Counted from the first letter of the stretch, positions 14,805 through 38,131 are shown. The stretch is DNA of 39,090 bases from Actinomycetota bacterium (GCA_013816725.1 JACDEA010000002.1:6486-45575), one strand, 5' to 3'. Program-made: numbers and translations. The notes: generated from the sequence alone by a model not told the origin.

Positions 14805-14880
14805 GGCCCCATCGTCTAGCGGCCTAGGACACCACCCTCTCAAGGTGGCGGCACGGGTTCGAATCCCGTTGGGGCTGCCA
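14805..14880 (+). tRNA. tRNA-Glu (anticodon CUC), CCA encoded
   Basis: Hand-folded cloverleaf. Acceptor GGCCCCA/TGGGGCT (G1-U72 wobble). D arm GTCT-AGCGGCCTA-GGAC. Anticodon arm CCACC-CTCTCAA-GGTGG. Variable loop CGGC. T arm ACGGG-TTCGAAT-CCCGT. Discriminator G plus CCA. The D arm matches the tRNA-Glu type. Confidence 0.9.
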
Positions 14881-18572: not shown

Positions 18573-19007
18573 TCACCTCAACATCGATGGTTGATCGAGG
18601 TATACCTCAAGGTCGCCAGTGACTGGCACAACGTCGAGGTGATGCTCGCCATCGGTTGAACGGCTCCCTCGCAGGTCGACCGTGGCTTCACCGACCGAGA
18701 GACCCTTGACGCTGATTTCTGGCAGCCAGTCCGGTAAAGCTGGCCTTACCGCGAGTTGGCGGGCGTCAGCGTCGGCGTCAAGGCCGAGCAGAGCAGCGAC
18801 GAGTTGTACCACTGCCCCCGACGCCCATGCCTGGGGCACGTTGGCGCCTTGGTACTGAACTGGGAACGCGCCGCGGTCTCGCTCAAGGCCCGCGAAGAGT
18901 TCGGGCAGTCGGAGTCCGCTGAAGCGTTCGGCGGCGTCGAAGAAGCCGCGCACCACTTGCGCGGCTTTGGGCGTCAAGGCCGTAGTTCCGGAAGCCGGCG
19001 GCCACCA
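18573..19007 (-). pseudogene. C-terminal ~140-aa fragment of an amylo-alpha-1,6-glucosidase (GDE_C, bacterial/archaeal debranching-enzyme family)
   Basis: LRLPELFAGLERDRGAFPVQYQGANVPQAWASGAVVQLVAALLGL...PALPDWL...LSVGEATVDL is the conserved C-terminus of proteins normally ~650-700 aa long. Nothing corresponding to the N-terminal ~500 aa is present. Confidence 0.65.
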
Positions 19008-19928
19008 TCACCGTTCGGTGAGCAGCTTCCAGCCGTCGGTGTCGTCCTCGCCGAGACCGTCCTCCAGTGACCAGATCGGATAGCGCGCGGTCAGCTCGGC
19101 CCAGCGTTCCACCAGTTCAGCCGACGACATGGTCGCCCCTGCGCTGACGAGGGCGTAGCGGCCGTCGGCGCCCCTGAACTCGCTCGCGGCGGGATCCAGC
19201 GCGATGGCCACGCCGTCGCGGCGGGCCGAGTAGCCGGCGTCGGCGATGGCGCCGACCAACATGCCGAGCGCTTCCTCCGCGGTGGACAGCTCGGGGGCGA
19301 AACCGCCCTCATCGCCGAGACCGACTGCCGTTCCCGCCGCCTGTAGGCGACCGCGCAGGGCGGCATACACCTCGGCGCCGACGCGTAGCGCTTCGGCGAA
19401 GGTCGGCGCGCCGAGCGGGCACACCATGAACTCCTGCGGCTGAAGGCGGTTGGCGGCGTGTCGGCCGCCGTTTATGACGTTGAAGCACGGCACCGGGAGC
19501 CGCGGCTCGACGCCCGCCGGAGCCAGGTGCCGATAGCGGGGTTGGCCGGCGGCGCCCGCGAACGCTCGCGCCGCGGCCATCGACACGCCCACGATCGCAT
19601 TCGCGCCGAGGCGGCCCTTAGCATCGGTCCCGTCGAGGTCGACGAGCAGCGCGTCGAGGGCGGCGAGATTTTCGATGACCTGGCCGACGAGCGCGTCGGC
19701 GATCTCGCCGTTTACGTTGGCAACCGCGCCGCTCACGCCGGCGCCGCCATAGCGCGTCTGGTCGCCGTCACGCAGCTCGACCGCCTCGCGGGTGGCCGTC
19801 GACGCGCCCGAGGGCACGCCGGCTGTGCCCGTCGACCCGTCGGCCAACGACAGTTGCACCGACTCGGTAGGAAGCCCGCGGGAGTCGAGGATCTCCAACG
19901 CAGTCAGCGAGGCGACGCGGTGCGTCAT
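19008..19928 (-). pseudogene. eno: Truncated enolase paralogue (N-terminal ~306 of ~430 aa)
   Basis: From ATG 19928: MTHRVASLTALEILDSRGLPT, GVPSGASTATREAVELRDGD, FNVINGGRHA, LGDEGGFAP, ALDPAASEF, SLEDGLGEDDTDGWKLLTER, then TGA. The downstream catalytic region (SHRSGETED motif) is missing. Confidence 0.7.
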
Positions 19929-20079
19929 TGCGAGGTTCCTTCCAGCGCGAGGGGATCTTGGCGGCGGTGGTTGACGGATCGCATTCGCATCATCCAAAGT
20001 ATCGTCGCAGTGCTAGGCGCCCAACCCTCGACTCTGGCGACGGAAACTCGCCGCGCCTGCTAGCAACGGTCGGCGCGAT

Positions 20080-20337
20080 GTGGTCTGCTGGATGACCACG
20101 ATGTCTCATGCCGGATGGATGATCCTCGGTGACGGTGCCGTCATTGCGGCCCTTGGCGCGCTCGCGGTCCTCGTGAACGAAGGCCGTGTCGGGCTTCGGA
20201 TGCCCTTCGAACTCTCGGGACTGTTCGGGCGCGACCGAAGGCGAGCAGCAACGAGCCACGCGCTCTTGCTCGCGGGTGTTGCCGCGATGGTTGTCGGTGT
20301 CCTAGCGGTCCTGTTGGCGGCCCTGATAACGCGGTGA
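20080..20337 (+). CDS. Hypothetical small two-TM membrane protein
   Basis: ORF track only. Two hydrophobic segments (GWMILGDGAVIAALGALAVLV and LLLAGVAAMVVGVLAVLLAALI). No recognisable family. Confidence 0.35.
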   Translation: MVCWMTTMSHAGWMILGDGAVIAALGALAVLVNEGRVGLRMPFELSGLFGRDRRRAATSHALLLAGVAAMVVGVLAVLLAALITR

Positions 20338-20424
20338 CAGCGCGCGCCGACCGCGACCAGGCGGCGACGATCGCACCGGGCAACCTGGGAATCAGGTCTC
20401 GAGATACGTCCCGTTGTCGCGGAC

Positions 20425-20647
20425 AGCCAGATGGTCGACCCGTCGGTGCGGACGGGCCGATGCTGGTGGCCAAGATCGAAACGCAGGAGGCCCTCCCGCG
20501 CACGAACGCATCACCGCTGCGATCTCGGCCCTGGCGTGACGGGCGGCGGGTGATGCTGACGCGACGGCCATCATCGCGCGCACGAACACCGGAGCCACGG
20601 CTCGGGCCATCTCGCGATTCCGCCCGGCGAGCCCGATCCGACGATAG
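20425..20647 (+). pseudogene. pyk: Collapsed pyruvate kinase remnants (A-domain piece and C-domain piece, different frames, large internal deletions)
   Basis: Hand translation gives MLVAKIETQEAL at 20460-20495 (compare I-I-A-K-I-E-N-x-E-G/A). It also gives ADATAIIARTNTGATARAISRFRPASPIRR, then TAG, at 20555-20647 (compare A-I-V-V-x-T-x-S-G-x-T-A-R-x-I-S-K-Y-R-P-x-x-P-I). Only ~0.25 kb remains of a ~1.4 kb gene. Confidence 0.5.
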
Positions 20648-20780
20648 ACATCCTGCGTCTGGTCCGCGTCCCGGCGACACCAGGTCGAGGCCACGACTAG
20701 CGTTCCATGTGCATTCCCGCCCAGACCCTGCGTTCCGAGTGTGTCGAACAATCCGACAAGAGAACCAGGGACGGCTGAAC

Positions 20781-21416
20781 ATGACCACCTCGAACGCCAA
20801 CGAAACCGAAGCCGTCTACCACCTGCCCGATCTTCGTTACGACTACAACGCGCTCGAGCCGCAGATCTCGGCACGCATTATGGAGTTGCACCATTCCAAG
20901 CACCACGCGGCCTATGTAGCCGGAGCGAATCGCGCCCTCGAAGCCCTACGTGGGGCGCGAGGCAGCGGTGACTTCAGCACGCTGTCGATGCTCGAGAAGA
21001 ACTTGGCGTTCAATCTGTCGGGTCACGTACTCCACTCGTTGTTCTGGGACTGTCTGTCGCCCGGCGGCGGCGGCGAGCCGACGGGCTGGATCGCCGAGCA
21101 GCTCGACGCCGACTTTGGCGGCTTTTCCCCGTTCCGGGAGCACATGATCGAAGCGGCCAGCACCATCCAAGGATCCGGTTGGGCATTGGCGTCGTGGGAG
21201 CCGACCAGTCAGCGAATTGTGATCGAACAGGCCTACGATCATCAGGGCAACCACGGCCAAGGCACCGTGCCGATCCTGCCGATCGATGCGTGGGAGCACG
21301 CCTACTACCTGCAGTATGAGAACGACAAGCGGTCATTTTTCGAGGCCATATGGGCCATAGTCGACTGGCCGCGGGTCGCAGCCCGCCTCGACCAGGCCTC
21401 CCTGGGCGCGACCTAG
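20781..21416 (+). CDS. sodA: Fe/Mn superoxide dismutase
   Basis: From ATG 20781: YHLPDLRYDYNALEPQISARIMELHHSKHH, FNLSGHVLHSLFW and IDAWEHAYYLQY. The 149 codons upstream in the listed ORF (from 20334) are pseudogene debris, not SOD. Confidence 0.9.
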   Translation: MTTSNANETEAVYHLPDLRYDYNALEPQISARIMELHHSKHHAAYVAGANRALEALRGARGSGDFSTLSMLEKNLAFNLSGHVLHSLFWDCLSPGGGGEPTGWIAEQLDADFGGFSPFREHMIEAASTIQGSGWALASWEPTSQRIVIEQAYDHQGNHGQGTVPILPIDAWEHAYYLQYENDKRSFFEAIWAIVDWPRVAARLDQASLGAT

Positions 21417-21432
21417 TTTTTGGCAAGCAGCG

Positions 21433-23244
21433 ATGTCGTCGCCTATCGAGGACTACGCGTTTTTGTCGGACATGGCGTCGGCCGCGCTGGTCAGCCGAGA
21501 CGGCTCAATCGATTGGCTCGCCTTTCCCCGCTTCGATTCGGCCGCCTGCTTCGCTGCTCTCGTCGGTGAGCCCCGAGACGGCCGGTGGCTGCTGGCGCCG
21601 GCCAATCCGCCGCGTTCGGTTCGCCGCGCGTACCGGGGAGACTCGCTCGTACTCGAGACGGTGTACGACTGCGACGATGGCGAGGTCGCGGTCATCGACT
21701 GCATGCCGTTGCGCGGCGACCAGCTCGACGTGGTGCGCCTCGTCGAGGGCCGACGCGGGCGCGTCGCTATGCACGTCGAATTGATCGTCCGGTTCGGGTA
21801 CGGCAAAACGGTGCCGTGGGTCCGCATGATCGACGGCGACTGGGTGGCGGTCGCCGGACCTGACGCGTTGCGGCTCACGACTCCGGTTGAGTTGCGCGGC
21901 GACGGTGAGGGCGGAGATCGCCGCACGAGCGGTGAGTTCAGTGTGGGCGTCGGAGAACAGGTGCCGTTCGTGCTCACCTGGCATCGGTCCCACGAACCGA
22001 CGCATGACGTAATCGACGCGGCCGCCGCGATCGACACGACGCAGCAGTGGTGGCAGGAATGGTCGTCACAGTGCACGTATCACGGTCGATGGTCCGATGA
22101 CGTGCGGTCGTCGCTCACCGTGTTGAAGGGGCTCACGTACGTCGCGACCGGCGCGGTGTGCGCGGCGCCCACCACGTCGCTGCCCGAAACGATCGGCGGG
22201 GTGCGCAACTGGGACTACCGCTATTGCTGGCTGCGCGACGCCACTTTCACGCTGATGGCGCTGATGGAAGCGGGCCACACCAGCGAGGCCAAGTCGTGGC
22301 GGGACTGGTTGTTGCGGGCTGTGGCCGGAGACCCGGCTGACCTGCAGATCATGTACGGCCTGGCCGGGGAACGCTGGCTTGATGAGCGCGAGCTGCCATG
22401 GCTGTCGGGCTATGCCGGTTCGACACCGGTCCGGGTCGGCAACGCAGCGTCAGGCCAGTTTCAGCTCGACGTGCACGGCGAAGTCATCGACGCACTCCAC
22501 CAGGCTGCCGCCGACGGCCTGGAATTCGACGACGACGCTTGGCAGCTGCAAAAGGTTCTGCTCGACTTCCTTGAGGGCGCATGGCAACAGCCCGACGAAG
22601 GCATCTGGGAGGTGCGCGGGTCACGGCGACACTTCACGCACTCCAAGGTCATGGCCTGGGTAGCCGCTGACCGGATCGTTCGCACCGCGAAACGGTTTCA
22701 CCTCGATGGGCCTGTCGAGCGGTGGCGCGCGTTGCGCAACGAGATTCATCGTGACGTGCTGAAGCACGGAGTCGACGAACGCGGAGTCTTCGTGCAGACC
22801 TACGGAGCGACGGCGCTCGACGCGAGCCTTTTGCTGGTTCCACTTGTCGGCTTCCTGCCCGCCACCGACGATCGCGTGGTGAACACCATCGAGGCGATCC
22901 AACGCGAGCTGAGCGCCGACGGTTTCGTGGTCCGTTACCGAACCGATCCCGCGGTCGACGGTCTGCCCAGCGGAGAAGGAGCCTTCCTGCTTTGCACGTT
23001 CTGGCTCGCCAACGCGCTCGCCCTGATCGGCCGCGTCGATGAGGCGACGGAAATGTTCCAGCGGCTGCTGGCGCTCCGCAACGACGTGGGACTGCTGGCC
23101 GAAGAGTACGACCCCGTGAGCGGGCGACTGCTGGGCAACTTCCCCCAAGCGTTCTCCCACACCGCCATCATCAACACGGCCACCACCCTCGATCGTCACC
23201 GCGGGCCCACGCAGCGGCGCGCCCAACCCGAAGCGAGCGCGTGA
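21433..23244 (+). CDS. Glycoside hydrolase family 15 protein (glucoamylase/trehalase-type)
   Basis: IEDYAFLSDMASAALVSRDGSIDWLAFPRFDSAACFAALVG at the N-terminus. NWDYRYCWLRDATFTL, EGAFLLCTFWL and FPQAFSH. Confidence 0.85.
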   Translation: MSSPIEDYAFLSDMASAALVSRDGSIDWLAFPRFDSAACFAALVGEPRDGRWLLAPANPPRSVRRAYRGDSLVLETVYDCDDGEVAVIDCMPLRGDQLDVVRLVEGRRGRVAMHVELIVRFGYGKTVPWVRMIDGDWVAVAGPDALRLTTPVELRGDGEGGDRRTSGEFSVGVGEQVPFVLTWHRSHEPTHDVIDAAAAIDTTQQWWQEWSSQCTYHGRWSDDVRSSLTVLKGLTYVATGAVCAAPTTSLPETIGGVRNWDYRYCWLRDATFTLMALMEAGHTSEAKSWRDWLLRAVAGDPADLQIMYGLAGERWLDERELPWLSGYAGSTPVRVGNAASGQFQLDVHGEVIDALHQAAADGLEFDDDAWQLQKVLLDFLEGAWQQPDEGIWEVRGSRRHFTHSKVMAWVAADRIVRTAKRFHLDGPVERWRALRNEIHRDVLKHGVDERGVFVQTYGATALDASLLLVPLVGFLPATDDRVVNTIEAIQRELSADGFVVRYRTDPAVDGLPSGEGAFLLCTFWLANALALIGRVDEATEMFQRLLALRNDVGLLAEEYDPVSGRLLGNFPQAFSHTAIINTATTLDRHRGPTQRRAQPEASA

Positions 23245-23245
23245 C

Positions 23246-24295
23246 GTGCGCGCTCTGACGGTGCTGCCCGGCCATGCCGGTTCTGTGTCGGTGACCGATG
23301 TCGACGAACCACCGACGTCTGATGGCGCGATGCTCGTCGAGACGCTTGCGATCGGTGTGTGCGGCACCGACCGCGAGATCTGTGCCGGCAAGTACGGCTC
23401 GGCGCCGGCGGGCAGTGATCGCCTTGTCATCGGTCACGAGTCACTCGGCCGTGTACTCGAAGTGCCCCAAGGTGCTGGCTTCGACGTGGGCGATCTCGTT
23501 GTGGGCATCGTTCGACGCCCAGACCCGGTGCCGTGTCCGAACTGCGCAGTCGGTGAGTGGGACATGTGTCGTAACGGACAGTTCACCGAGCGCGGCATCA
23601 CCGGCCGTCACGGATATGCGTCGGACCGCTACCGAATCGAACCCGAATTCGCCGTCCCCGTCGACGCCGCACTAGGCGCGCTCGGCGTGCTGGTGGAGCC
23701 GACCAGCGTTGTGGCCAAGGCGTGGGATCACATTGAGCGAATCGGCGCACGCTCCGCGGCCTGGTCGCCCCGGTCGGTGCTCATCACGGGCGCGGGGCCG
23801 ATCGGTTTGCTCGCGGCGATGCTGGGCGCCGCGAAAGGACATGACGTCGACGTCGTGGACGTCGCCACCGACGGCCCGAAACCCGGTCTTGTAGCTGCGC
23901 TGGGCGCGACGTATCACGCGGAACCGGTCGCCGGGCTCGCGGCGCGCGCCGACGTCGTGATCGAATGCACCGGGGTTCCCAAGGTCGTCCTCGACGTGCT
24001 TTCCAATACCGGGCCGGACTCGATCGTCTGCCTGACCGGGGTCTCCAGCGGTGGGCGGGCGCTGCCCTTCGACGCCGGTGGCGTCAACCGTGACATGGTG
24101 CTCGGCAATGCCGTTGTGTTCGGCTCGGTCAACGCCAACCGGCGGCACTACCTGACCGCCGCCGACGCGCTCCACGCCGCCGATCCGCAGTGGCTCGCCG
24201 CGCTGATCACGCGTCGCGTTCCGCTCGATTCGTTCGCAGCCGCGCTTGCACCGAGTGCCCACGACGTGAAGACGGTCATCTCGTTCGCTACGTGA
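23246..24295 (+). CDS. Zinc-dependent MDR-family glucose 1-dehydrogenase (archaeal-type GDH-like)
   Basis: GVCGTDREI, GHESLG, CPNCAVGEWDMC (structural Zn) and LITGAGPIGLL (Rossmann). Overall pattern resembles Thermoplasma/Sulfolobus-type glucose dehydrogenases. Substrate is inferred only. Confidence 0.6.
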   Translation: MRALTVLPGHAGSVSVTDVDEPPTSDGAMLVETLAIGVCGTDREICAGKYGSAPAGSDRLVIGHESLGRVLEVPQGAGFDVGDLVVGIVRRPDPVPCPNCAVGEWDMCRNGQFTERGITGRHGYASDRYRIEPEFAVPVDAALGALGVLVEPTSVVAKAWDHIERIGARSAAWSPRSVLITGAGPIGLLAAMLGAAKGHDVDVVDVATDGPKPGLVAALGATYHAEPVAGLAARADVVIECTGVPKVVLDVLSNTGPDSIVCLTGVSSGGRALPFDAGGVNRDMVLGNAVVFGSVNANRRHYLTAADALHAADPQWLAALITRRVPLDSFAAALAPSAHDVKTVISFAT

Positions 24296-24303
24296 CGGCC
24301 TGA

Positions 24304-25095
24304 TCAATCGAGGCCTTGAAGCTCCCATAACCGGATGCCACCCAGCAGTCCGCCGGCGTTGCCGACCAGTGTCACCTTGCCGGCGAGGTCCGGTCGCCTC
24401 TTTTGCAGCTTCGCCACGTCGACTCGCCGCGCGTTCCCTCCGCCGACCAAGATCGCGTCGGGGAAAATCAACGCGTCAACCGCGATCAGCGTCTTCACGA
24501 CGCGCCGGTTCCAGTGCTTCACGCCAAGCTTCTTGCGAGCGCGGTCGCCGACGTAGTCGTTGTATGTTCCGCGCTTGATGGCGGGATGATGCGCCAGTTC
24601 AAGGTGCAAGGCCAGGGCGCCGTCGCGGAACACGCAGGACCCCAGTCCCGTTCCAAGCGTAAGCACCAGTTCCAGACCTCTGCCCGTGACGACCCCGGCA
24701 CCTTGGACATCGGCATCATTAGCGACACGGGCGGGAACGCCGAGCGCGGCGCTAAGCGCGCCGCGCAAGTCGAAACGCTCCCAACTCTTCACCAGGGAGT
24801 CGTCCACGGTGCTCCCGGGGCCGTGGAGAGTCACGAAATGGGGTGCGGTCAACACCAGTCCTTCCCGCACGACGCCGGGGAATCCGGCCGAGACCCGCTG
24901 ATACGGGGGCAGCGCGTCGACAAGTCGAACGAGATCGGCCACCAGTTTCTCGGGCGGGCAGGGGTAGGTCGTATCGACCCTAACGCGCTCGTGAACGGGC
25001 TCACCTTGTGCATCGAGCACAGTCGCCTTCAGACCGGAGCCGCCGATATCGATCACGAGTGTTTTGACGGGTCCAACGGTTGTGGCGTCAGGCAT
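24304..25095 (-). CDS. ppgK: ROK family polyphosphate/ATP glucokinase
   Basis: LVIDIGGSGLKA, GFPGVV, NDADVQG, LTLGTGLG and HLELAHH. Length 263 aa, as in actinobacterial PpgK. Confidence 0.8.
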   Translation of the reverse strand: MPDATTVGPVKTLVIDIGGSGLKATVLDAQGEPVHERVRVDTTYPCPPEKLVADLVRLVDALPPYQRVSAGFPGVVREGLVLTAPHFVTLHGPGSTVDDSLVKSWERFDLRGALSAALGVPARVANDADVQGAGVVTGRGLELVLTLGTGLGSCVFRDGALALHLELAHHPAIKRGTYNDYVGDRARKKLGVKHWNRRVVKTLIAVDALIFPDAILVGGGNARRVDVAKLQKRRPDLAGKVTLVGNAGGLLGGIRLWELQGLD

Positions 25096-25271
25096 GCATG
25101 CTCAACGTAGGCCTTCGCAACTACCCAACCGATACACGCCTGCTCCCGCGCGACCGAGCGAAGAATCGGCGTGAAGTTGAAGCCGCCGTGAGCCCCCCAA
25201 AGGGATACGGGAACAGATCAGGCGCGGGCACGTCGCGGTACTGGCGTCGTCGTTACCGATACGTTGGGCGC

Positions 25272-25712
25272 ATGAGGATACTTGTCGCTCTCGACGAATC
25301 GGCGGTGTCGGCTCGGGCGGCGCGTGAAGCGGTGCGGTTGTTCGGGACCTCCGGCGCTGAGTTCTTGGTGATCAACGTCGCCCGGACCCCGAACACGTCG
25401 CTATACCCCACCGACTTCGGCGCGGTCGCACCGATGCCACACGATGCCGCGTACCTCAGCGATCAAGCAGAACTCCACGCCGCGGCCTTGGCCGACCAGG
25501 TCGGGCTCGCGGACGCAGAGGTCATCACCGACCTGGGTGACCCGGCGAGCAGCATTTGTGATGCCGCGGACGCTCACAACGTGGACGTCGTCGTGGTTGG
25601 ATCGCACGATCGAGGTGTAATCGGCAGACTGCTCGAACCGTCTGTCGCGGCAGGCGTCGTGCGCGGCACACATCGACCCGTCCTAGTGGTCAGCGGGAGC
25701 CCACCCGCTTAG
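25272..25712 (+). CDS. Universal stress protein (UspA family)
   Basis: From ATG 25272: MRILVALDESAVSARAAREAV...FLVINV...DVVVVGSHDRG...RPVLVV. Confidence 0.8.
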   Translation: MRILVALDESAVSARAAREAVRLFGTSGAEFLVINVARTPNTSLYPTDFGAVAPMPHDAAYLSDQAELHAAALADQVGLADAEVITDLGDPASSICDAADAHNVDVVVVGSHDRGVIGRLLEPSVAAGVVRGTHRPVLVVSGSPPA

Positions 25713-27595: not shown

Positions 27596-28780
27596 TCAGG
27601 GCCCACTCGATACCGGAATACCGATCACGCGGCCGCCTGCTGGTTGGTTCAGCTCGTGACCGCAGGCAGGACAAGCGACGGGCTCCATATTCCGCGAGCG
27701 TCCCGGGTCGCCAAGCTCTAGGGCGATCTGTTTCTCGCAGGACCGGCAGTCGACGATCAGAGTGTGTGGGTCCCCGGCGGGGGCGCGTGATGACTGGTCG
27801 TCGCGGCGTCCTGGGCTGATGTGAGCGGCCACGCCACCTCCGGAGAAGACAGTGACGCGGCCCGACTCGGAGACCACGAGCGCTAGCACGCCTGGCACGT
27901 CGAAGGTGAAGCGGCGGGCGGACGTGTGCCGGGCGCCAAGGGTCGCCTGCACGAGCGAGATGGCGCGGCGCGTGCTGTTCAAGCGGACACCGATGGGTCC
28001 GACGGTGCCGTCCGCGCCAATGATTGTCGCAAGGTCGACCTGGCTGTGGATGGAGACCAGTGCGGGGAAGTGGGCTCTTCGAGCAACCGACAGCCCCGGC
28101 GGCTGAACCGCCTGACTCAGCTCGAGCAGACCCTCGCGGCGGTCATCGAGGGCGTGGCCGTCAAGGTTCCACACGAGAGTCGATCCGACGCAGCCGGCGG
28201 CGAGCGCGTGGACCGCGAGCTCTAGGAGTCCAGCCGCCACCGCAGGATCCGCGTGGGGGGCCAGGGTGGTGATCAGGGCTACGTACTCGTCGGCGAGCGG
28301 CTTATGGAGCCAGGTCGAGCCGTCCCAGGACACGACGCCGTTGGCAGTGCAAACCCGGAGCAGACCGGTCTGACCCCGCTGGATCACGACGGCGCCACAT
28401 CTCTGGAGGCGCACCGCCGCGAGTTCGTCGTCGAAGCTTCGCTCGAAAACAGCGAGGCCACTGATCCCTTCGGGGGTTACTACCGTGAACGATGACCCTC
28501 CGTCAGCACAACGACGGAGCACGGGCGTCGACACGGAGGGGTCGCCGACCAGTAGGGGCGGGTGTGGTGCGCTGTCCCAGTCGGGCACGCCATCGAAGAT
28601 GAGCGACCCGTAAGCCGGTGTGCGCCGCTCGTGGCGAGGTGGTCGTCGGGCGTAGGTCAACTCGGCCAGGATCCGAGAGCCCGACGGGCCATCGAGGGTA
28701 AGCGGGACGTTTTCGTCGGCAAGCTCCTCACGAAGTCGGGCGAGGCGCCTAAGAACTACCGGATCGTCGGCATGGCTCAC
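27596..28780 (-). CDS. DAC (DisA_N)-fold domain protein with non-canonical motifs, an unassigned N-terminal half and a C-terminal 4-Cys zinc ribbon
   Basis: GSTLVWNLDG, HSQVDLATIIGADGTVGPIG and LGARHTSARRFTFDVPGVLALVVSESGRVTVFSGG are colinear with diadenylate cyclase motifs, with DGA changed to DLA and RHR to RHT. CRSC-x21-CPAC near the C-terminus. The GTG start lies 5 nt after the upstream MarR-like stop. Confidence 0.6.
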   Translation of the reverse strand: MSHADDPVVLRRLARLREELADENVPLTLDGPSGSRILAELTYARRPPRHERRTPAYGSLIFDGVPDWDSAPHPPLLVGDPSVSTPVLRRCADGGSSFTVVTPEGISGLAVFERSFDDELAAVRLQRCGAVVIQRGQTGLLRVCTANGVVSWDGSTWLHKPLADEYVALITTLAPHADPAVAAGLLELAVHALAAGCVGSTLVWNLDGHALDDRREGLLELSQAVQPPGLSVARRAHFPALVSIHSQVDLATIIGADGTVGPIGVRLNSTRRAISLVQATLGARHTSARRFTFDVPGVLALVVSESGRVTVFSGGGVAAHISPGRRDDQSSRAPAGDPHTLIVDCRSCEKQIALELGDPGRSRNMEPVACPACGHELNQPAGGRVIGIPVSSGP

Positions 28781-28785
28781 AGGTC

Positions 28786-29100
28786 TCAGCCGCTGATCCT
28801 TGCCTGGCCGGGCATGTCGTCGGTAGCTTCTGCCATAGCGCGCAGCCCGGCGACCATCCCTACGCGTTGTCGGTTAGCGAGGCCTTTGCTCACCAAGCGG
28901 TCGCACACCCGGGTGCCCGTTGATCGCGGCGCTTCCAACTCCGCGCGTAGGGCCGACACGCCGGTAGCCCGGCGGTCGCACAGCACGACCAGTGCCCAGA
29001 ACTGGGGCAGCGTTGCACGGTCGGCTATCGCGGCCAGCGAGCGGACGGCGACGGCCGCACGTGGGGCCGACCGAACCGCATCGGCGACAGTACGCATCAC
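28786..29100 (-). CDS. Truncated MarR-like HTH protein (104 aa; wing and C-terminal dimerisation helices missing)
   Basis: ATLPQFWALVVLCDRRATGVSALRAELEAPRSTGTRVCDRLVSKGL parallels VTLPQFRALVVLTRPSAVTVGDLAEALDVRPSTATRLCDRLERKRL of the divergent MarR at 29264. After the recognition helix the similarity ends. Confidence 0.55.
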   Translation of the reverse strand: MMRTVADAVRSAPRAAVAVRSLAAIADRATLPQFWALVVLCDRRATGVSALRAELEAPRSTGTRVCDRLVSKGLANRQRVGMVAGLRAMAEATDDMPGQARISG

Positions 29101-29263: not shown

Positions 29264-29764
29264 ATGCATATGATTCCCAACGATGTCGAGTCGACTGCGG
29301 AAGTTCTCCTACGCGCATCACGAGTTTTGGTAGCTGTCGCCGCGCGCTCATTTGCGGACGTCGACGACGTCACGCTTCCGCAGTTTCGTGCGCTCGTTGT
29401 GTTGACGCGACCGAGCGCGGTCACGGTGGGCGACCTGGCCGAGGCGCTCGATGTCCGCCCGTCGACTGCGACGCGCCTGTGTGATCGGCTCGAGCGCAAG
29501 CGGCTCGTCAAGCGAAACCCGGGCGCCCCGCCCGATCGCCGGGAGACGCAAGTGAGCCTGACCGCCTCCGGACGGCGCCTCGTCGCGCTGGTGACCGGAC
29601 GCCGCTCCCGTGACATTGCCGCGATCGCCGCGTCCATGACCCCGGCAGAGTGCGCGCACGCCGTGAAAGGACTCAGCGCGTTCGCGACGGCGGCAGGCGA
29701 GCTACCGATAGATCCATTCGGCTGGAGCGATTTTGCGTCCACTGGCAGGGCCTCGTCCCGATGA
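29264..29764 (+). CDS. MarR family transcriptional regulator
   Basis: Full-length winged HTH: LPQFRALVVL...VGDLAEALDVRPSTATRLCDRLERKRLVKRNPGAPPDRRETQVSLTASGRRL. Its stop overlaps the ClC start (ATGA). Confidence 0.8.
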   Translation: MHMIPNDVESTAEVLLRASRVLVAVAARSFADVDDVTLPQFRALVVLTRPSAVTVGDLAEALDVRPSTATRLCDRLERKRLVKRNPGAPPDRRETQVSLTASGRRLVALVTGRRSRDIAAIAASMTPAECAHAVKGLSAFATAAGELPIDPFGWSDFASTGRASSR

Positions 29765-31758
29765 CTGAGTTGTTGGCGCGTCTGAAGGACTGGAGCTATC
29801 TGCGCAAGTGGCTGGTTCTCGGCGCCCTCATCGGAGTGGTCGCGGGGCTCGGCGCGATCGCGTTCATCTTCGCGCTCGACGGGGCCTCGAAGCTGCTCCT
29901 CGAGACGATTGGTGGATACAAGCCGCCGCTACCGGTGGGCGAGGGCAATCGGCTCGCGGCCGGAAGCTTCGCTCGCCCATGGGCCATCCCGCTCGTCGTC
30001 GGCTTCGGTGGTCTGGTTTCTGGGATCCTTGTATTTGGGTTCGCGCCCGAGGCAGAGGGGCACGGGACCGACGCGGCGATCGACGCGGTCCACCACAACC
30101 CTCGCGGCATTCGTGTGCGGGTCACGCTGATCAAGCTGTTTGCGTCAGCGGCCACGATTGGCAGCGGCGGGTCCGCTGGGCGCGAGGGTCCAACTGCGCA
30201 GATCAGCGCCGGATTCGGCTCGTTCCTGGCGCGACGTCTAGCGCTCAGCCCCGAGGACTCGCGCATCGCGGTCGCGGTCGGGATCGGCTCCGGCATCGGC
30301 GCGATATTCCGTGCGCCACTCGGCGGGGCGGTGCTGGGCGCCGAGATTCTCTACCGCGACGACCTCGAGCCTGAGGCACTGTTCCCATCGCTCGTCGCGT
30401 CGATCGTCGGGTTCTCGATCTTCGGCGCGGTCGAGGGTTTCGATCCGATCTTCGGAACCCTGCGCACCCCCCAGTTCGACCATCCGGTCCAACTCTTCTA
30501 CTACGCCCTTCTTGGCATCGCTGCGGGCCTCCTTGGCCGCCTCTATGCCCGCGGCTTCTATGGAACCGTCGCCCTCCGCCACAAGTTCCCCGGACCGGAC
30601 ATGCTCAAGCCGGCAGTCGCCGGCGTCCTCGTCGGCCTGATCGGCCTCGCCTTCCCGGCTGCGCTTGGCACCGGCTACGGCTGGCTGCAACGGGGGATTC
30701 ACGACGGACTACCTAACACCGCCTTGTGGGTGATCCTGGCGCTGCCCCTCGTGAAGATTCTTGCCACTTCACTGTCGATCGGATCCGGTGGGTCGGGTGG
30801 AATCTTCGGTCCGGGTATGGTGATCGGCGGCTTCGTCGGACTCGGCCTTTGGCGCGTTCTTCACGGCGTCGCCCCCGGCATGCCCGACGCGCCCGCACCC
30901 TTCATGGTCGTCGGCATGATCGCGTGCTTTGGCAGCATCGCCCACGCCCCCCTCGGGCTCATGCTGATGGTTGCCGAGATGACCGGCAGCCTGGCGCTGC
31001 TCCCGCCGGCGATGATCGCCATCGGACTGGCGACGCTCGTTGTCGGCGACGACACGATTTATGAAAGCCAGTTGCGCAGCCGCGCTGATTCGCCCGCGCA
31101 TCGCGCCGCGTTCGGCCTGCCGCTTCTCAGCGCGGTATTGGCCTCAGACCTGATGACGAAACCCCGACTCGTCCTGTCAGCGGACGTCTCCGTCGCCGAG
31201 GCCCGCGACCGGCTCGACGCAAGCGACGTTCCTGGCGCCCCGGTCGTCGGCGCTGACGGCGAATTCGTTGGCGTCCTATTAGCTGATGGAACGCAGGCCC
31301 GCGGCGACGTCACTGCGGGCGCGGCCGCTGATCGCTCTTACCCAACCGTTCCATCCGATCGCGGCCTCGATTTCGCCCTCGATGCGATGGTCTCGGCCGG
31401 CGTCGGCTGGGTGCCGGTCTTGAACGACAACCGCCTCGCGGGAATCGTCGCGATGAACGAAGTTATCGCCGGCTACCAGCAGGCCCTCCGGCGCTCACTG
31501 CGGCTTCTCGCCGACGTCAGCGGGAGCTCAGTTCTCGTCGAAGCCACCGTCGGCGAGACATCGTCGTTCGCCGGCACGACCGTCGCCGACGCTCCCTGGC
31601 CGCCCGGGTCTTTCGCTCTGAGCATCGACCGACGCAGCCAACTGATCGCGCCCAGACCGCAGACGGACATACAGTCCGGTGACGTTGTTGTCGCCGTGGT
31701 TCCAGCCGGCGTCGAGGCCGAGTTGCGCCGTCGACTCAATGGGCATGAGATGCCGTGA
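29761..31758 (+). CDS. ClC family chloride channel / H+-Cl- exchanger with C-terminal CBS pair and RCK_C (TrkA_C) domain
   Basis: ATG 29761. GSGGSAGREGP, GSGGSGGIFGPGMVIGG and GSIAHAPL selectivity-filter motifs. CBS-like segments (DLMTKPRLVLSADVSVAEA..., GWVPVLNDNRLAGIVAMNEV). The tail VLVEATVGETSSFAGTTVADAPWPPGSFALSIDRRSQLIAPRPQTDIQSGDVVVAVV is RCK_C-like. Confidence 0.85.
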   Translation: MTELLARLKDWSYLRKWLVLGALIGVVAGLGAIAFIFALDGASKLLLETIGGYKPPLPVGEGNRLAAGSFARPWAIPLVVGFGGLVSGILVFGFAPEAEGHGTDAAIDAVHHNPRGIRVRVTLIKLFASAATIGSGGSAGREGPTAQISAGFGSFLARRLALSPEDSRIAVAVGIGSGIGAIFRAPLGGAVLGAEILYRDDLEPEALFPSLVASIVGFSIFGAVEGFDPIFGTLRTPQFDHPVQLFYYALLGIAAGLLGRLYARGFYGTVALRHKFPGPDMLKPAVAGVLVGLIGLAFPAALGTGYGWLQRGIHDGLPNTALWVILALPLVKILATSLSIGSGGSGGIFGPGMVIGGFVGLGLWRVLHGVAPGMPDAPAPFMVVGMIACFGSIAHAPLGLMLMVAEMTGSLALLPPAMIAIGLATLVVGDDTIYESQLRSRADSPAHRAAFGLPLLSAVLASDLMTKPRLVLSADVSVAEARDRLDASDVPGAPVVGADGEFVGVLLADGTQARGDVTAGAAADRSYPTVPSDRGLDFALDAMVSAGVGWVPVLNDNRLAGIVAMNEVIAGYQQALRRSLRLLADVSGSSVLVEATVGETSSFAGTTVADAPWPPGSFALSIDRRSQLIAPRPQTDIQSGDVVVAVVPAGVEAELRRRLNGHEMP

Positions 31759-34758: not shown

Positions 34759-34799
34759 CGAACAGACGCCTTCGCGGCGATCCCCCCGGACTCGGTCAC
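34749..34799 (-). pseudogene. 5' ghost (16 codons) of a second cyclase-STAND gene, start overlapping the stop of the intact gene (GTGA)
   Basis: GTG ACC GAG TCC GGG GGG ATC GCC... reads VTESGGIAAKASVRSP-stop. Its first 22 nt repeat 38050-38029 of the intact gene (VTESGGIVTILFTD) with one mismatch. Confidence 0.5.
34778..34799. repeat. 22-bp direct repeat, copy 1 (cgatccccccggactcGgtcac)
   Basis: 21/22 identical to 38029-38050. The two copies bracket the whole cyclase-STAND gene (3251-bp spacing). Confidence 0.8.
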
Positions 34800-37700
34800 A
34801 CGCGAAGCGCGCGCATCCGGTCGGCGAGCACGATGAGGCCAAGGGCGTCGGCTCTTGGCAGCGCGTCGGCGACGATTTGGGCGGCCCGATGGGTGTCGCC
34901 ATCGCCGTCTCGGCGGAGGAGCGTGTGGGCCAGTGCCCACTGACCCCGGATGGCCATGCGAACCGCACCTCGCAAACCATCGGCATCGATCCCGCGCTCG
35001 AAGTACGCGATAGCCCGTTCGTACTCACCCATCACCGAGCTGAGGTTGCCGAGGAGGCGGGAGATGGAGCCGTACCACTCGGCGCACTGGCCTACAGCCA
35101 CAAAGCGGTCTTCGAATGGTCGCAGCAGCTCGAAGGCGGCGTCGGCGTGTTGGCGTGCGTCGGTCAAGAAGACGGCGTCGGCGATGAGTCCCATCGCCGT
35201 CGGCCAGTTGGCGTCGTAGGCGTAGTCACGGAACCCATGCGCCCCCACTTCATCGAGCTCGACGCGCGCTTCCTCCGCGCGCCCATCCTCGGCCAGGACC
35301 ACGATCAGGCACAGCCGCCACGCCGGTAACAGGGGATACTTCTCGGCCATCTCCCGCACAGCCCCCTCTACCTCGCCGAGGCTGCCCTGCTCGCGGCGGA
35401 GAACGAACTGTTGGATCCCGAAGGTTTGGAGGGCCGCCGGTGCGTGGGCTCGCTGCCCGAGTTCCAACGCCTGGAACGACCAGCGTTCGAGACCCGCGAG
35501 ATCGCCGCGCGCCGCGGCGAGCGTCGCCCGCCAAAGGGGCGCGTGCCACGCCAGCGCGGGAAGCCGGACCTTGGCGGCCAACGCCTCCGCGTTGGCCACC
35601 TCGGCCTCGAACTCGTCAATGTCGCCGCGCTCGAGCAGGGCGAAGCACCGCAGCGTCCGGGCGAAGTGCTCGACGCCTGCGTGGTTTATCTCGCGTCCGA
35701 TGCGGAGCGACTCCGAACTCAGCTCGATCCGACGCTCGACGTTCTCGAGGCCGTCGGACAAGGCGAAGACGGCGTTGAGGGCGAAGCCGATCGCGGTCCT
35801 GTCGCCGACCCGGCGCGCCATTTCCAGCGACTTGTCGGCGGCGTCGGACATCTTGTCGCGGTCATAGAAGTAGTAGGCGGTCGACAGGCGTGAGAGCACG
35901 AGCGCGTGCTCGGCGCCGTCTGTGTCACCGAACCGTCGCGACGCCTCTTCGAGCAGCCGGATCACCTCGAGATCGCGCGTGCCGATCTCGCCGTCGTGCG
36001 CGTAACCGAGCACCGCTTGCGCAAACCGCTCCGCGTCGAGCGGACGCGCCGCTTCGATGGCGGCTGCGTAGGTCGAGCGGCCAGTGACGATGTTGCCGGC
36101 GCGGCGCTGGGCGTCGGCCAGCGCCAGCAGGAGATCGCATCGCAACGTCGGATTCTTGGCAGGCGACTGCTCCAACGCCTCGAGCGCCCGCTCGCAGTGG
36201 CCGACGGTCTCCTCGTATGCCAGCTGGCTCATCGCGGCGTCGGCGGCGCGCCGGCTGTAGTCGACGGCGCGGTCGATATCGCCTGCCGTCCGGCTGCACA
36301 GCCAGTGGTGCGCCAGCTGCGACAGCACGGAGTCGAGGTGGCCGGCGTGCAGTTCCTCGAGCGCCTCGGCCACCCGCCGATGCATGCGGACCTGCCGCGC
36401 CGTGGACATGGCGCCGTAGAGCGTCTCGCGCACCAGCGCATGGGAGAAGCGGTAGCTCGTCAGGCTGCCGGGTACCTCGACGACGAGCCGGGAGGCGAGG
36501 CCTTCGTCGATCGCTTCAAGTACGCGGTCCTCCCCAAGCTCCGTCACCCGCTCGATGACGTCGAGGTCGAACTCGCGGCCAACCACCGCGCCAGCTATCA
36601 GGACAGCGTTCGTGTCCGGCGACAGTCGACCCAGCCGGCGACCGATGACCTCGCTCACGCTCTCGGGAATGCCGAGCCCGTCGACGATCGCGGTTGAGTC
36701 GTGGTCAACGTCGAGCGGTCCCGCCGACTCCACCAGGTGTCGCAGGACTTCGCCGATATAGAACGGGTTGCCCTCGGTCTGGTCGCGGAGCGCTCGGGTG
36801 AACGCCGGCGCCGGTTCGTGCCCGGTCACCTGGTCGATGAACTCTTCGAGGTCGTGCTCGCCGAGACCGCCGACGCTGAGTCGCTCGAATCGCACGACGC
36901 GGCGCAGGTCGGCAAAGGTCTCGGTCAGCGGATGACGCGGGGTCAGATCCGTGTCCCGGTACGTGCAGATGACGAGTACGCCGGCGTCGGTCGGCGACCG
37001 AAACAGGTGTTGGAGCAACAGGAGCGTCGGCCGATCCGCCCACTGGAGGTCGTCGAGGATCAGGACGACGGGCACCTGCGCCGCGAGTGAGGTGATGAGA
37101 TGCACGGCAGCGTCGAATAGTCGGAACCGTTCGCTCTCGGCGTCGGACCTCATCGGCGGTGCGAGGTCGGCTACGCGATCGCGCAGCGTCGGGAGCAGGC
37201 GGCCGAGCTCGGAGCCGTTGGCCGCGACAAGCGCCATGAGCAGGTCGGCGGGTGCCGAGGCCACGACGTGCTGCAGTGCCTCGACGAACGGCTGGTACGG
37301 CAACAGGGCCTCCTCGTCGGCGTGGCCGAAGAGGACGATGGCGCCGTCCGCATAGCACCGGCCGGCGAACTCGACCGCGAGCCGGGTCTTGCCGATGCCG
37401 GGCTCGCCGCCCAGCGCGGCAAGAGCCCGGTGACCGTCGCGTGCCTCTTTCCATTGGAGCCGCAATTCCTCGAGAAGATCCTGCCGGCCGACGAAGGGGG
37501 TGCGCTCGCCACCGGCGAGCTGCGCCGGCAGCGGGAAGACCTGCGACACGGGCGGCTCCCAGAGGACCTCGCAGGCGGCGACTTCGGATTCGATGCCTTT
37601 CAATGCAAGGGGGCCGACGTCCTTGAACGCGAACTCGCTCCGGCTGCCGACGAGCGCACGGATGAGGTCCGAGGTGAGGATCTGGCCGGGATCGGCCCGG

Positions 37701-38131
37701 TCGCACAGCCGGCTGGCCACCACGACGGGGGTGCCGAAGTAGTCGTCGCCCTCCTGGATCGGCTCGCCGACGTGCACGCCGATGCGGAGGTCGATCTTGT
37801 GACCAGTGGTGGCGTGCTGCATCCCGACGGCGCAGTGCATGGCGTCGACAGCGCTGTTGAACACGACCATGAAGCCGTCGCCCAGGGTCTTGACCTCGCG
37901 GCCGCCGCAGCCGGCGATCACCTCACGCAGGTCGTTGAAATGGAGCCGCCTGAGCTCTTCGGCCCGCACGTCGCCGAGTCGGGTCAACGCCTCGGTGCTG
38001 TTGACGACGTCGGTAAAGAGGATCGTGACGATCCCCCCGGACTCTGTCACGGCCGCGAGGCTACTCCTGCGTCTTCTTTCACCAGCGCTTCCCGCGCTGC
38101 TGCCCACCAGCTGGCCCCACAAAGCACACAT
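34796..38131 (-). CDS. Class III adenylate/guanylate cyclase domain + STAND P-loop NTPase + TPR-like repeats (Rv0386-like architecture without the LuxR HTH)
   Basis: Cyclase: IVTILFTDVVNSTE, VKTLGDGFMVVF, LRIGVHVGEP and DDYFGTPVVVASRL. P-loop: GGEPGIGKTRLAVEF. Walker B: VVLILDDLQWAD. About 600 aa of helical repeats follow. There is no C-terminal HTH. The true start may be GTG 38050 (MTESGGIVTILF) rather than ATG 38131. Confidence 0.8.
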   Translation of the reverse strand: MCALWGQLVGSSAGSAGERRRRSSLAAVTESGGIVTILFTDVVNSTEALTRLGDVRAEELRRLHFNDLREVIAGCGGREVKTLGDGFMVVFNSAVDAMHCAVGMQHATTGHKIDLRIGVHVGEPIQEGDDYFGTPVVVASRLCDRADPGQILTSDLIRALVGSRSEFAFKDVGPLALKGIESEVAACEVLWEPPVSQVFPLPAQLAGGERTPFVGRQDLLEELRLQWKEARDGHRALAALGGEPGIGKTRLAVEFAGRCYADGAIVLFGHADEEALLPYQPFVEALQHVVASAPADLLMALVAANGSELGRLLPTLRDRVADLAPPMRSDAESERFRLFDAAVHLITSLAAQVPVVLILDDLQWADRPTLLLLQHLFRSPTDAGVLVICTYRDTDLTPRHPLTETFADLRRVVRFERLSVGGLGEHDLEEFIDQVTGHEPAPAFTRALRDQTEGNPFYIGEVLRHLVESAGPLDVDHDSTAIVDGLGIPESVSEVIGRRLGRLSPDTNAVLIAGAVVGREFDLDVIERVTELGEDRVLEAIDEGLASRLVVEVPGSLTSYRFSHALVRETLYGAMSTARQVRMHRRVAEALEELHAGHLDSVLSQLAHHWLCSRTAGDIDRAVDYSRRAADAAMSQLAYEETVGHCERALEALEQSPAKNPTLRCDLLLALADAQRRAGNIVTGRSTYAAAIEAARPLDAERFAQAVLGYAHDGEIGTRDLEVIRLLEEASRRFGDTDGAEHALVLSRLSTAYYFYDRDKMSDAADKSLEMARRVGDRTAIGFALNAVFALSDGLENVERRIELSSESLRIGREINHAGVEHFARTLRCFALLERGDIDEFEAEVANAEALAAKVRLPALAWHAPLWRATLAAARGDLAGLERWSFQALELGQRAHAPAALQTFGIQQFVLRREQGSLGEVEGAVREMAEKYPLLPAWRLCLIVVLAEDGRAEEARVELDEVGAHGFRDYAYDANWPTAMGLIADAVFLTDARQHADAAFELLRPFEDRFVAVGQCAEWYGSISRLLGNLSSVMGEYERAIAYFERGIDADGLRGAVRMAIRGQWALAHTLLRRDGDGDTHRAAQIVADALPRADALGLIVLADRMRALRV
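38029..38050. repeat. 22-bp direct repeat, copy 2 (cgatccccccggactcTgtcac)
   Basis: See copy 1 at 34778-34799. It covers the probable GTG start and the first 7 codons of the cyclase gene. Confidence 0.8.

Follow-up and report, generated by a model that had tools for sequence, protein, structure and literature searches.

Cyclic di-AMP (c-di-AMP) controls osmotic and ion homeostasis and is essential in many bacteria, and the regulation of its synthesis is known for few classes of diadenylate cyclase (DAC). We analyzed a DAC-type gene in a stretch of 39,090 nucleotides (nt) from an Actinomycetota bacterium (GCA_013816725.1, JACDEA010000002.1:6486-45575); the window refers to this whole stretch. 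The gene is located on the minus strand and encodes a protein of 394 amino acids (aa), the window protein, in which a central DAC domain follows an N-terminal DACNK domain and precedes a predicted zinc ribbon. Galperin 2023 (J Bacteriol) reportedly defines the DACN* domains, and we take the DACNK-DAC proteins to be one of the DAC families distinguished there by their N-terminal domains. The status of this architecture as described comes from the Pfam model and from passages in citing papers; in one such passage (PMC12901056, citing Galperin 2023) the DACs are subdivided into 22 families by domain architecture.

The closest structural match to the DAC domain of the window protein is DisA (T. 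maritima, 3c1y; M. tuberculosis, 9y4s; E 4e-7, 23-24% identity). DisA resembles the window protein in being soluble, in doing without acidic residues after the strand serine (SHS, compared with SES in the window protein), and in carrying a C-terminal module that possibly serves in targeting. It differs in having an N-terminal DAC domain (central in the window protein), a helical spine, a helix-hairpin-helix (HhH) DNA-binding domain, and the DGA and RHR motifs; the window protein had no match to an HhH or DisA-linker domain in Pfam or NCBIfam. CdaA/DacA and CdaM/DacM have the same DAC fold, and DacM shares the GARH variant of the second motif. However, CdaA and CdaM possess N-terminal transmembrane helices and the canonical DGA and RHR motifs, whereas the N-terminus of the window protein is modelled as a globular DACNK domain (predicted local distance difference test, pLDDT, 94; no dedicated transmembrane predictor was run). 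Against NF041371, the equivalog for DacZ/CdaZ enzymes with their pyruvate-kinase-C-like N-terminal domain, the protein scored 11.7 bits, with the cutoff at 430. The original prediction, made from the sequence of the window, had held the protein to be none of DisA, CdaA, CdaS, CdaM, or DacZ, and this is supported.

The defense-associated DS-2C (DACNG + DACNH + DAC) and PanS are like the window protein in having a divergent DAC domain with non-canonical residues in its motifs, and DS-2C also has a catalogued DACN* N-terminal module hypothesized to be sensory (bioRxiv 10.64898/2026.08.10.743927); both are precedents for variant DACs that are active and can change product. DS-2C and PanS are unlike the window protein, which has DACNK and not DACNG or DACNH, and which is without an effector partner or a defense-island context. 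PanS, a minimal DAC, keeps the third arginine of RHR and loses the R-H pair (GGR), the reverse of the RHT found in the window protein. PADLOC returned no match to the anti-phage DAC systems (the DS-2 variant of CBASS, and Panoptoo), and the neighboring genes encode transporters and stress proteins.

The window protein and the DACNK-DAC family share both Pfam domains in the same order, the length class, the RHTSARR helix, the VVSxxG strand, and the CxxC...CPxC ribbon. The family has DGA, GTRH or GMRH, and SxDG, whereas the subclade of the window protein has DLA, GARH, and SxSG. We regard membership in this family as very nearly certain, and the protein adds an uncharacterized member to a DAC family already catalogued; its architecture is not new. 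The gene, its domains, and its motifs are located as follows.

27596..28780, minus strand: whole gene, encoding a DACNK-DAC-zinc-ribbon protein of 394 aa (from the list of open reading frames, ORFs, and its translation; GTG start at 28780, stop codon at 27596-27598)
28307..28738, minus strand: DACNK domain, residues 15-158 (Pfam PF21753, 77.1 bits against a cutoff of 27, E 1.5e-21)
27836..28216, minus strand: DAC (DisA_N) domain, residues 189-315 (Pfam PF02457, Foldseek, and profile alignment to DACs in the PDB)
28166..28186, minus strand: GSTLVWN, residues 199-205, with an invariant G199; counterpart of the GALIV strand
28025..28039, minus strand: V-D249-L250-A251-T, counterpart of DGA; Asp is kept and Gly is replaced by Leu
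27908..27937, minus strand: G-A-R284-H285-T286-S-A-R289-R290-F helix, counterpart of GTRHRAA
27860..27877, minus strand: VVS304-E305-S306-G, counterpart of VVSEETG in CdaA and VSHSMS in DisA
27662..27748, minus strand: four-Cys zinc ribbon, C345-R-S-C348-x21-C370-P-A-C373 (from the Cys pattern)
27611-27631, minus strand: conserved (V/I)xG(V/I)P tail after the ribbon

The motif strings quoted in the original prediction were all found in the translation (GSTLVWN at residues 199-205, VDLAT at 248-252, GARHTSARRF at 282-291, VVSESG at 302-307, and CRSC at 345-348 followed after 21 residues by CPAC at 370-373), and its call of a DAC fold was borne out by two kinds of search. The PF02457 profile hidden Markov model matched above its cutoff (32.9 bits against 27, E 5.5e-8, profile positions 3-117 of 119). 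An AlphaFold2 model built from 30 homologs had a pLDDT of 93.1 and a predicted template-modelling (TM) score, pTM, of 0.90; in a Foldseek comparison with the PDB, all 41 matches at E<=1e-3 were DAC domains (DisA, CdaA/DacA, and CdaM/DacM). M. tuberculosis DisA ranked first (E 4e-7), DisA of T. maritima was among the matches, and the first non-DAC structure appeared at E~1. With significant matches in both the profile and the structure search, the absence of which would have refuted the prediction, the DAC assignment is firm. A phmmer search of PDB sequences with the window protein gave nothing relevant, only nanobody noise, and DisA and CdaA were reached via the family profile and not with the single sequence. 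Scans of the protein with NCBIfam and PADLOC returned no significant family.

The N-terminal half fared differently. Some 200 residues had been set aside as not assignable, and the N-terminal ~180 of the protein are assignable: the PF21753 match (77 bits, E 1.5e-21) identifies DACNK, which Pfam describes as a "probable sensor domain DACNK". The view that no described DAC architecture has this layout does not hold either, as the Pfam DACNK model was built for precisely such an N-terminal domain in DAC proteins.

This protein is also called as a gene product on a metagenome contig at NCBI. Alignments with homologs begin at about residue 8 (RRLxRLREEL); because the homologs align from this point on, the long, 394-aa start is taken to be correct. 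The NCBI nr record P0199, a 330-aa version of the window protein, would lose ~64 residues at the front of the conserved DACNK domain, and probably represents a mis-called short start.

DACNK was detected in all 53 phmmer homologs, nearly always together with DAC. When 1.84 billion representatives were searched exhaustively with the profile, 318 clusters were found at E<=1e-30 and just 1965 at E<=1e-3; this is a small family with a DAC domain so divergent that the profile barely reaches the canonical DACs. At 50% identity, it comprises ~300 clusters, mainly from Acidimicrobiia. In GTDB, with one genome per species, 94 loci carry a relative, nearly all of them in Acidimicrobiia; the carriers belong to Ilumatobacteraceae, Iamiaceae, and Microthrixaceae, and include the cultured Desertimonas flava and Actinospongicola halichondriae. 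The few GTDB relatives outside this class are from Riflebacteria, Oligoflexia, and the cyanobacterium Symploca. The best GTDB species representative is just 49% identical to the window protein, and the closer relatives (55-67% identity) are all on metagenome contigs. Homologs of the superoxide dismutase encoded in the window are labelled Acidimicrobiales or Actinomycetota; together with the GTDB distribution of the family, they point to an uncultured, Acidimicrobiia-like actinobacterium as the probable source. Two homologs stand apart, P0043 (578 aa), with a long low-complexity C-terminal extension, and P0051, with an internal segment in place of the DGA region; both oddities look like frameshift or assembly artefacts and not real variants.

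Motif equivalences were set by a profile alignment of the family to the solved DisA, CdaA, and DacM structures, and motif states were counted over 144 unbiased family representatives. Residues G199, G282, R284, H285, S287, A288, and R290 are invariant across the family, and D249, A251, and S304 are nearly so (at least 90% of the sequences). The window protein has neither DGA (D249-L250-A251, with Asp and Ala kept and Gly replaced) nor RHR (R284-H285-T286). In the 144 representatives DGA is the majority state; most have Thr at the third position of RHR, with an occasional Ser, Ala, Asn, Gly, or Arg.

The ancestry of the motifs was read from a neighbor-joining tree. The ancestral state in this tree is DGA, (T)RHT, SxDG, and a zinc ribbon. 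The clade containing the window protein is derived and monophyletic, with DLA, ARHT, and SxSG; a separate clade has DLA and MRHR, and several neighboring clades have DRA. SxDG is the family consensus, and SxSG is specific to the subclade of the window protein. Three substrate-facing changes, G250L, T283A, and D306S, fall together on the branch leading to this subclade. The original prediction that both signature motifs are changed was right in that DLA and RHT are real; however, the two are not changes of the same kind, since RHT is ancestral and family-wide, whereas DLA is derived within a subclade, DGA being retained by most family members. In this subclade overall identity is only 50-67%, yet Leu250 is conserved without exception, and for this reason we consider it to be under selection and not decaying or drifting.

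The loss of the third arginine of RHR is accompanied by a second basic position on the same helix. Residue 289 is Arg or Lys in most family sequences. Of the 180 sequences with a non-basic residue 286, 138 have Arg or Lys at 289; of the 11 with RHR, and hence Arg at 286, 9 have a non-basic residue at 289. This covariation (Thr with Arg/Lys versus Arg with Ala/Gln; nt 27914-27925 in the window) has a Fisher p of 1.4e-4, and the family members bearing RHR all carry DLA and GMRH as well. Positions 286 and 289 are one helical turn apart. Because they covary at this distance, one phosphate-binding Arg on this face of the helix would be needed at either site, and the pattern suggests that one Arg is required at 286 or 289. 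R289 and R290 are candidates for relocated phosphate-binding arginines; the third Arg of RHR would then have moved, in function, one helical turn downstream.

The C-terminal zinc ribbon of the original prediction is supported, with two CxxC knuckles on modelled beta-hairpins (pLDDT 87-96 for the region) and zinc binding as a prediction. Profile matches to the ribbon were sub-threshold only (the S27e, LysW, and RpoP ribbons). The ribbon is found in ~55-60% of the family representatives, the deepest branches included, and its cysteines are conserved in every ribbon-bearing homolog; the tree places it in the family ancestor. By analogy with the HhH domain of DisA, it probably mediates oligomerization, partner binding, or targeting.

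The DACNK domain consists of two long helices followed by an alpha/beta core. Its conserved positions, many of them polar, are E40, H50, E51, G58, R89, A92, D93, G94, E119, Q134, R135, W152, and W157; among these A92 and G94 are invariant, and D93 is found in at least 90% of the sequences. When the domain was modelled alone with AlphaFold2 (at the pLDDT of 94 given above) and compared to the PDB with Foldseek, the top 49 matches were all DAC domains, at weak scores (E 1.8e-3 to 0.4, probability <=0.97, TM 0.3-0.43). Its secondary-structure elements, H-E-H-E-E-H-E-E-E, are collinear with those of the neighboring DAC domain. A relaxed alignment, likewise collinear, places the invariant G58 of DACNK on G199 and the near-invariant D93-G94 on D249-(G)250 of the DAC domain. 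An hhalign comparison of DACNK with DAC was not significant (probability ~5%) and aligned only the hairpin 129-151 with 297-319, and the Pfam DAC model matched none of 21 DACNK sequences. The idea of a duplication is therefore based on the fold matches and the collinear secondary structure only; as such it is suggestive, and we lean toward DACNK being an ancient, degenerate DAC duplicate that kept the Asp-Gly element. The original prediction had pointed to a second, weaker GAVVIQRG...DG-like stretch in this half of the protein. This does hint at a DAC-like N-terminal half; however, in our mapping GAVVIQR falls on LALVVSE, the strand after RHR, and not to GALIV, and the counterpart of DG in the DACNK half is A92-D93-G94.

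The window protein is most likely a sensor-regulated nucleotide cyclase of the DAC type. It retains Asp249, Arg284, His285, Ser304, and the basic face of the helix, and the retained Asp, Arg-His, and Ser are the residues that matter most. Replacing RHR by AAA in M. tuberculosis DisA abolishes ATP binding and activity, whereas the G73A variant of the same enzyme retains cyclase activity (PMC3328451). In DacM of M. ovipneumoniae, R143A, which removes the first Arg, leaves zero c-di-AMP; active DacM is naturally GARHR, with Ala before RHR as in the window protein. In DacA of S. aureus, the Thr before RHR contacts phosphates (PMC6368335). PanS carries DGF and GGR and is an active cyclase, its asymmetric active site yielding 3'3'-cUA (bioRxiv 10.64898/2026.08.10.743927). 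We considered the absence of an acidic side chain in SES as an argument against catalysis and dismissed it, since DisA has SHS at this position. By analogy with these enzymes, neither GARH nor SES would disqualify catalysis, and the replacement of Gly by Leu is the sole change without an active precedent. With three extra changes at substrate-contacting positions, the turnover of the subclade with DLA, ARHT, and SxSG may be low or its specificity shifted; its activity may be reduced or redirected. We put the case that the window protein is an active cyclase with a product of the canonical type at about even.

As we picture it, the protein would be a soluble signaling protein of three modules: DACNK (residues ~15-175), DAC (residues ~180-325), and the C-terminal zinc ribbon. 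The central DAC domain would be the output module and the N-terminal DACNK the probable sensor. The DAC domain would bind a nucleoside triphosphate with Mg or Mn, and two DAC domains would meet head-to-head and produce a cyclic dinucleotide, with c-di-AMP as the simplest case. DACNK, as a ligand sensor or an intramolecular decoy partner, would gate this pairing.

Several observations weigh against an active, c-di-AMP-producing enzyme. The G113A variant of M. ovipneumoniae DacM makes only traces of c-di-AMP, and Leu is far bulkier than Ala. The Asp-Gly pair of S. aureus DacA contacts the ribose (PMC6368335). The validated c-di-AMP synthases named in the literature cited here all have DGA and RHR. 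The RHR sequences behind the covariation of residues 286 and 289 come from only one or two clades, so that there are few independent covariation events. An Rfam scan of the window for a c-di-AMP (ydaO-type) riboswitch found none. When neighboring genes were clustered across 81 loci, none recurred beyond local synteny, and the osmotic theme returns only loosely in the differing contexts of close homologs: around the first are a GH15 trehalase and a sigma factor, around the second aquaporins, GH65, STAS, and Band_7, and around the third nothing related. Lastly, the family is catalogued, but as far as we have seen apparently no member has been characterized experimentally; a literature search for DACNK or DacK gave nothing relevant.

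A somewhat unlikely but serious alternative is that the DAC domain of the DLA subclade lost catalysis and became a binding site for ATP, c-di-AMP, or another nucleotide; the protein would then be a sensor or scaffold whose output comes from the zinc ribbon and DACNK. The joint origin of G250L, T283A, and D306S on the subclade branch speaks for this, as does their strict conservation afterwards, which a new binding function predicts. DacM drops to trace activity with the Gly-to-Ala change by itself, which points in the same direction, and the same Gly position is also Arg in several neighboring clades, which suggests a relaxed or redirected constraint at the ribose contact. However, the catalytic Asp, Arg-His, R289/R290, and Ser304 are all kept, and a pure binder would not need the Asp; active DACs accept both GARH (DacM) and SHS (DisA), and G73A leaves DisA active.

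It is less probable still that the window protein has cyclase activity but a product outside the canonical type (a mixed cyclic dinucleotide, for instance, or a species that is linear or 2'-5'-linked), made possible by remodelled ribose and phosphate contacts or by asymmetric pairing of DAC with a DAC-like DACNK. PanS offers a precedent for a variant-motif DAC whose asymmetric site gives 3'3'-cUA. The fold of DACNK matches solely DACs, the domain keeps the near-invariant A-D-G and the conserved polar residues E40, H50, E51, R89, E119, Q134, and R135, and the pTM of 0.90 indicates a fixed arrangement of the domains. In contrast, sequence homology between DACNK and DAC is unsupported (hhalign 5%; Pfam DAC in 0 of 21 DACNK domains), the fold scores are weak with TM below 0.45, and a partner effector gene conserved over the 81 loci and a PADLOC match are both lacking.

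A further reading, which we likewise consider improbable, would make this family one of single-chain, half-site DACs: DACNK, as an ancient, degenerate internal duplicate of DAC that kept its Asp-Gly element and a conserved polar pocket and lost RHR, would form an asymmetric pseudo-dimer with the catalytic domain of its own chain. The degenerate site would either sense a nucleotide allosterically, and so gate the synthesis of c-di-AMP, or hold a different acceptor, leading to a non-canonical product, and the recurrent switches from Gly to Leu or Arg would tune this degenerate site.

The possibility that the gene is a chance ORF or a decaying remnant without function is already refuted and deserves practically no weight, for although high-GC DNA such as the window (67.3% GC) yields numerous long spurious ORFs, two Pfam domains exceed their cutoffs, full-length homologs number in the hundreds with strongly conserved columns, and the predicted structure is of high confidence.

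The DAC gene is preceded and followed by the genes below; no second DAC gene was found in the window.

28786..29100, minus strand: co-directional ORF of 104 aa, a truncated MarR-like winged helix-turn-helix, with its stop 5 nt before the DAC start
29650-31758, plus strand: ClC-type chloride channel with a C-terminal CBS pair and TrkA_C (RCK_C)
19000-25712: stress-type cluster with superoxide dismutase, a GH15 trehalase with TREH_N, a zinc alcohol dehydrogenase, ROK, two universal stress proteins (USP), and a short enolase-like ORF

The product of the 104-aa ORF is 51% identical over 63 aa to that of a divergent MarR gene (29264-29764, plus strand); its Pfam MarR match (E 3e-4) is below the cutoff. 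This ORF may be co-transcribed with the DAC gene. Its origin may lie in a tandem or inverted duplication, with the copy now decaying, or it may serve as a small regulator on its own, and it is absent upstream of the DAC gene in the loci of close homologs. The MarR and ClC channel genes are located divergently upstream of the DAC gene; the gene caller gives the ClC gene a later start (665 aa), with a 4-nt overlap with the MarR stop. A Na+/H+ exchanger gene follows the DAC gene after a gap of 229 nt.

Osmolyte and ion transport are governed by c-di-AMP, and RCK_C, CBS, and USP are known types of c-di-AMP receptor domain. By analogy, the ClC channel with its CBS pair and RCK_C is a candidate local effector. 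A dedicated partner gene was considered and rejected, as there is no conserved operon across the 81 loci. The DAC gene is a stand-alone signaling gene, and its context fits osmotic signaling loosely.

A GH15 trehalase also adjoins the DAC homolog P0007 on another contig (L082). An OsmC/Ohr-like ORF is convergent with, and 17 nt downstream of, the DACNK-DAC gene at locus L059 (7959-8537) and at five other Microthrixaceae loci; this adjacency probably reflects lineage synteny and not a functional link. Elsewhere in the window, positions 34796-38131 (minus strand) encode a protein of ~1100 aa with a class III nucleotide cyclase domain (Guanylate_cyc) and AAA_16, a second nucleotide-signaling gene. 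A tRNA gene at 14805-14877 (plus strand) is the sole Rfam match in the window.

DACNK-DAC is the dominant DAC type in Acidimicrobiia, a poorly studied but abundant lineage of soil and water. Of interest in this family are the RHT found throughout with its compensating Arg, the recurrent replacement of the DGA Gly by Leu or Arg, and the possibility that DACNK is a degenerate copy of DAC. If DACNK is indeed such a copy, the intramolecular decoy partner would be a regulatory principle without a description in the literature cited here. The naturally remodelled active site, with RH-Thr and a relocated Arg, and with Leu or Arg for the Gly of DGA in some clades, bears on whether RHR and DGA are obligatory.

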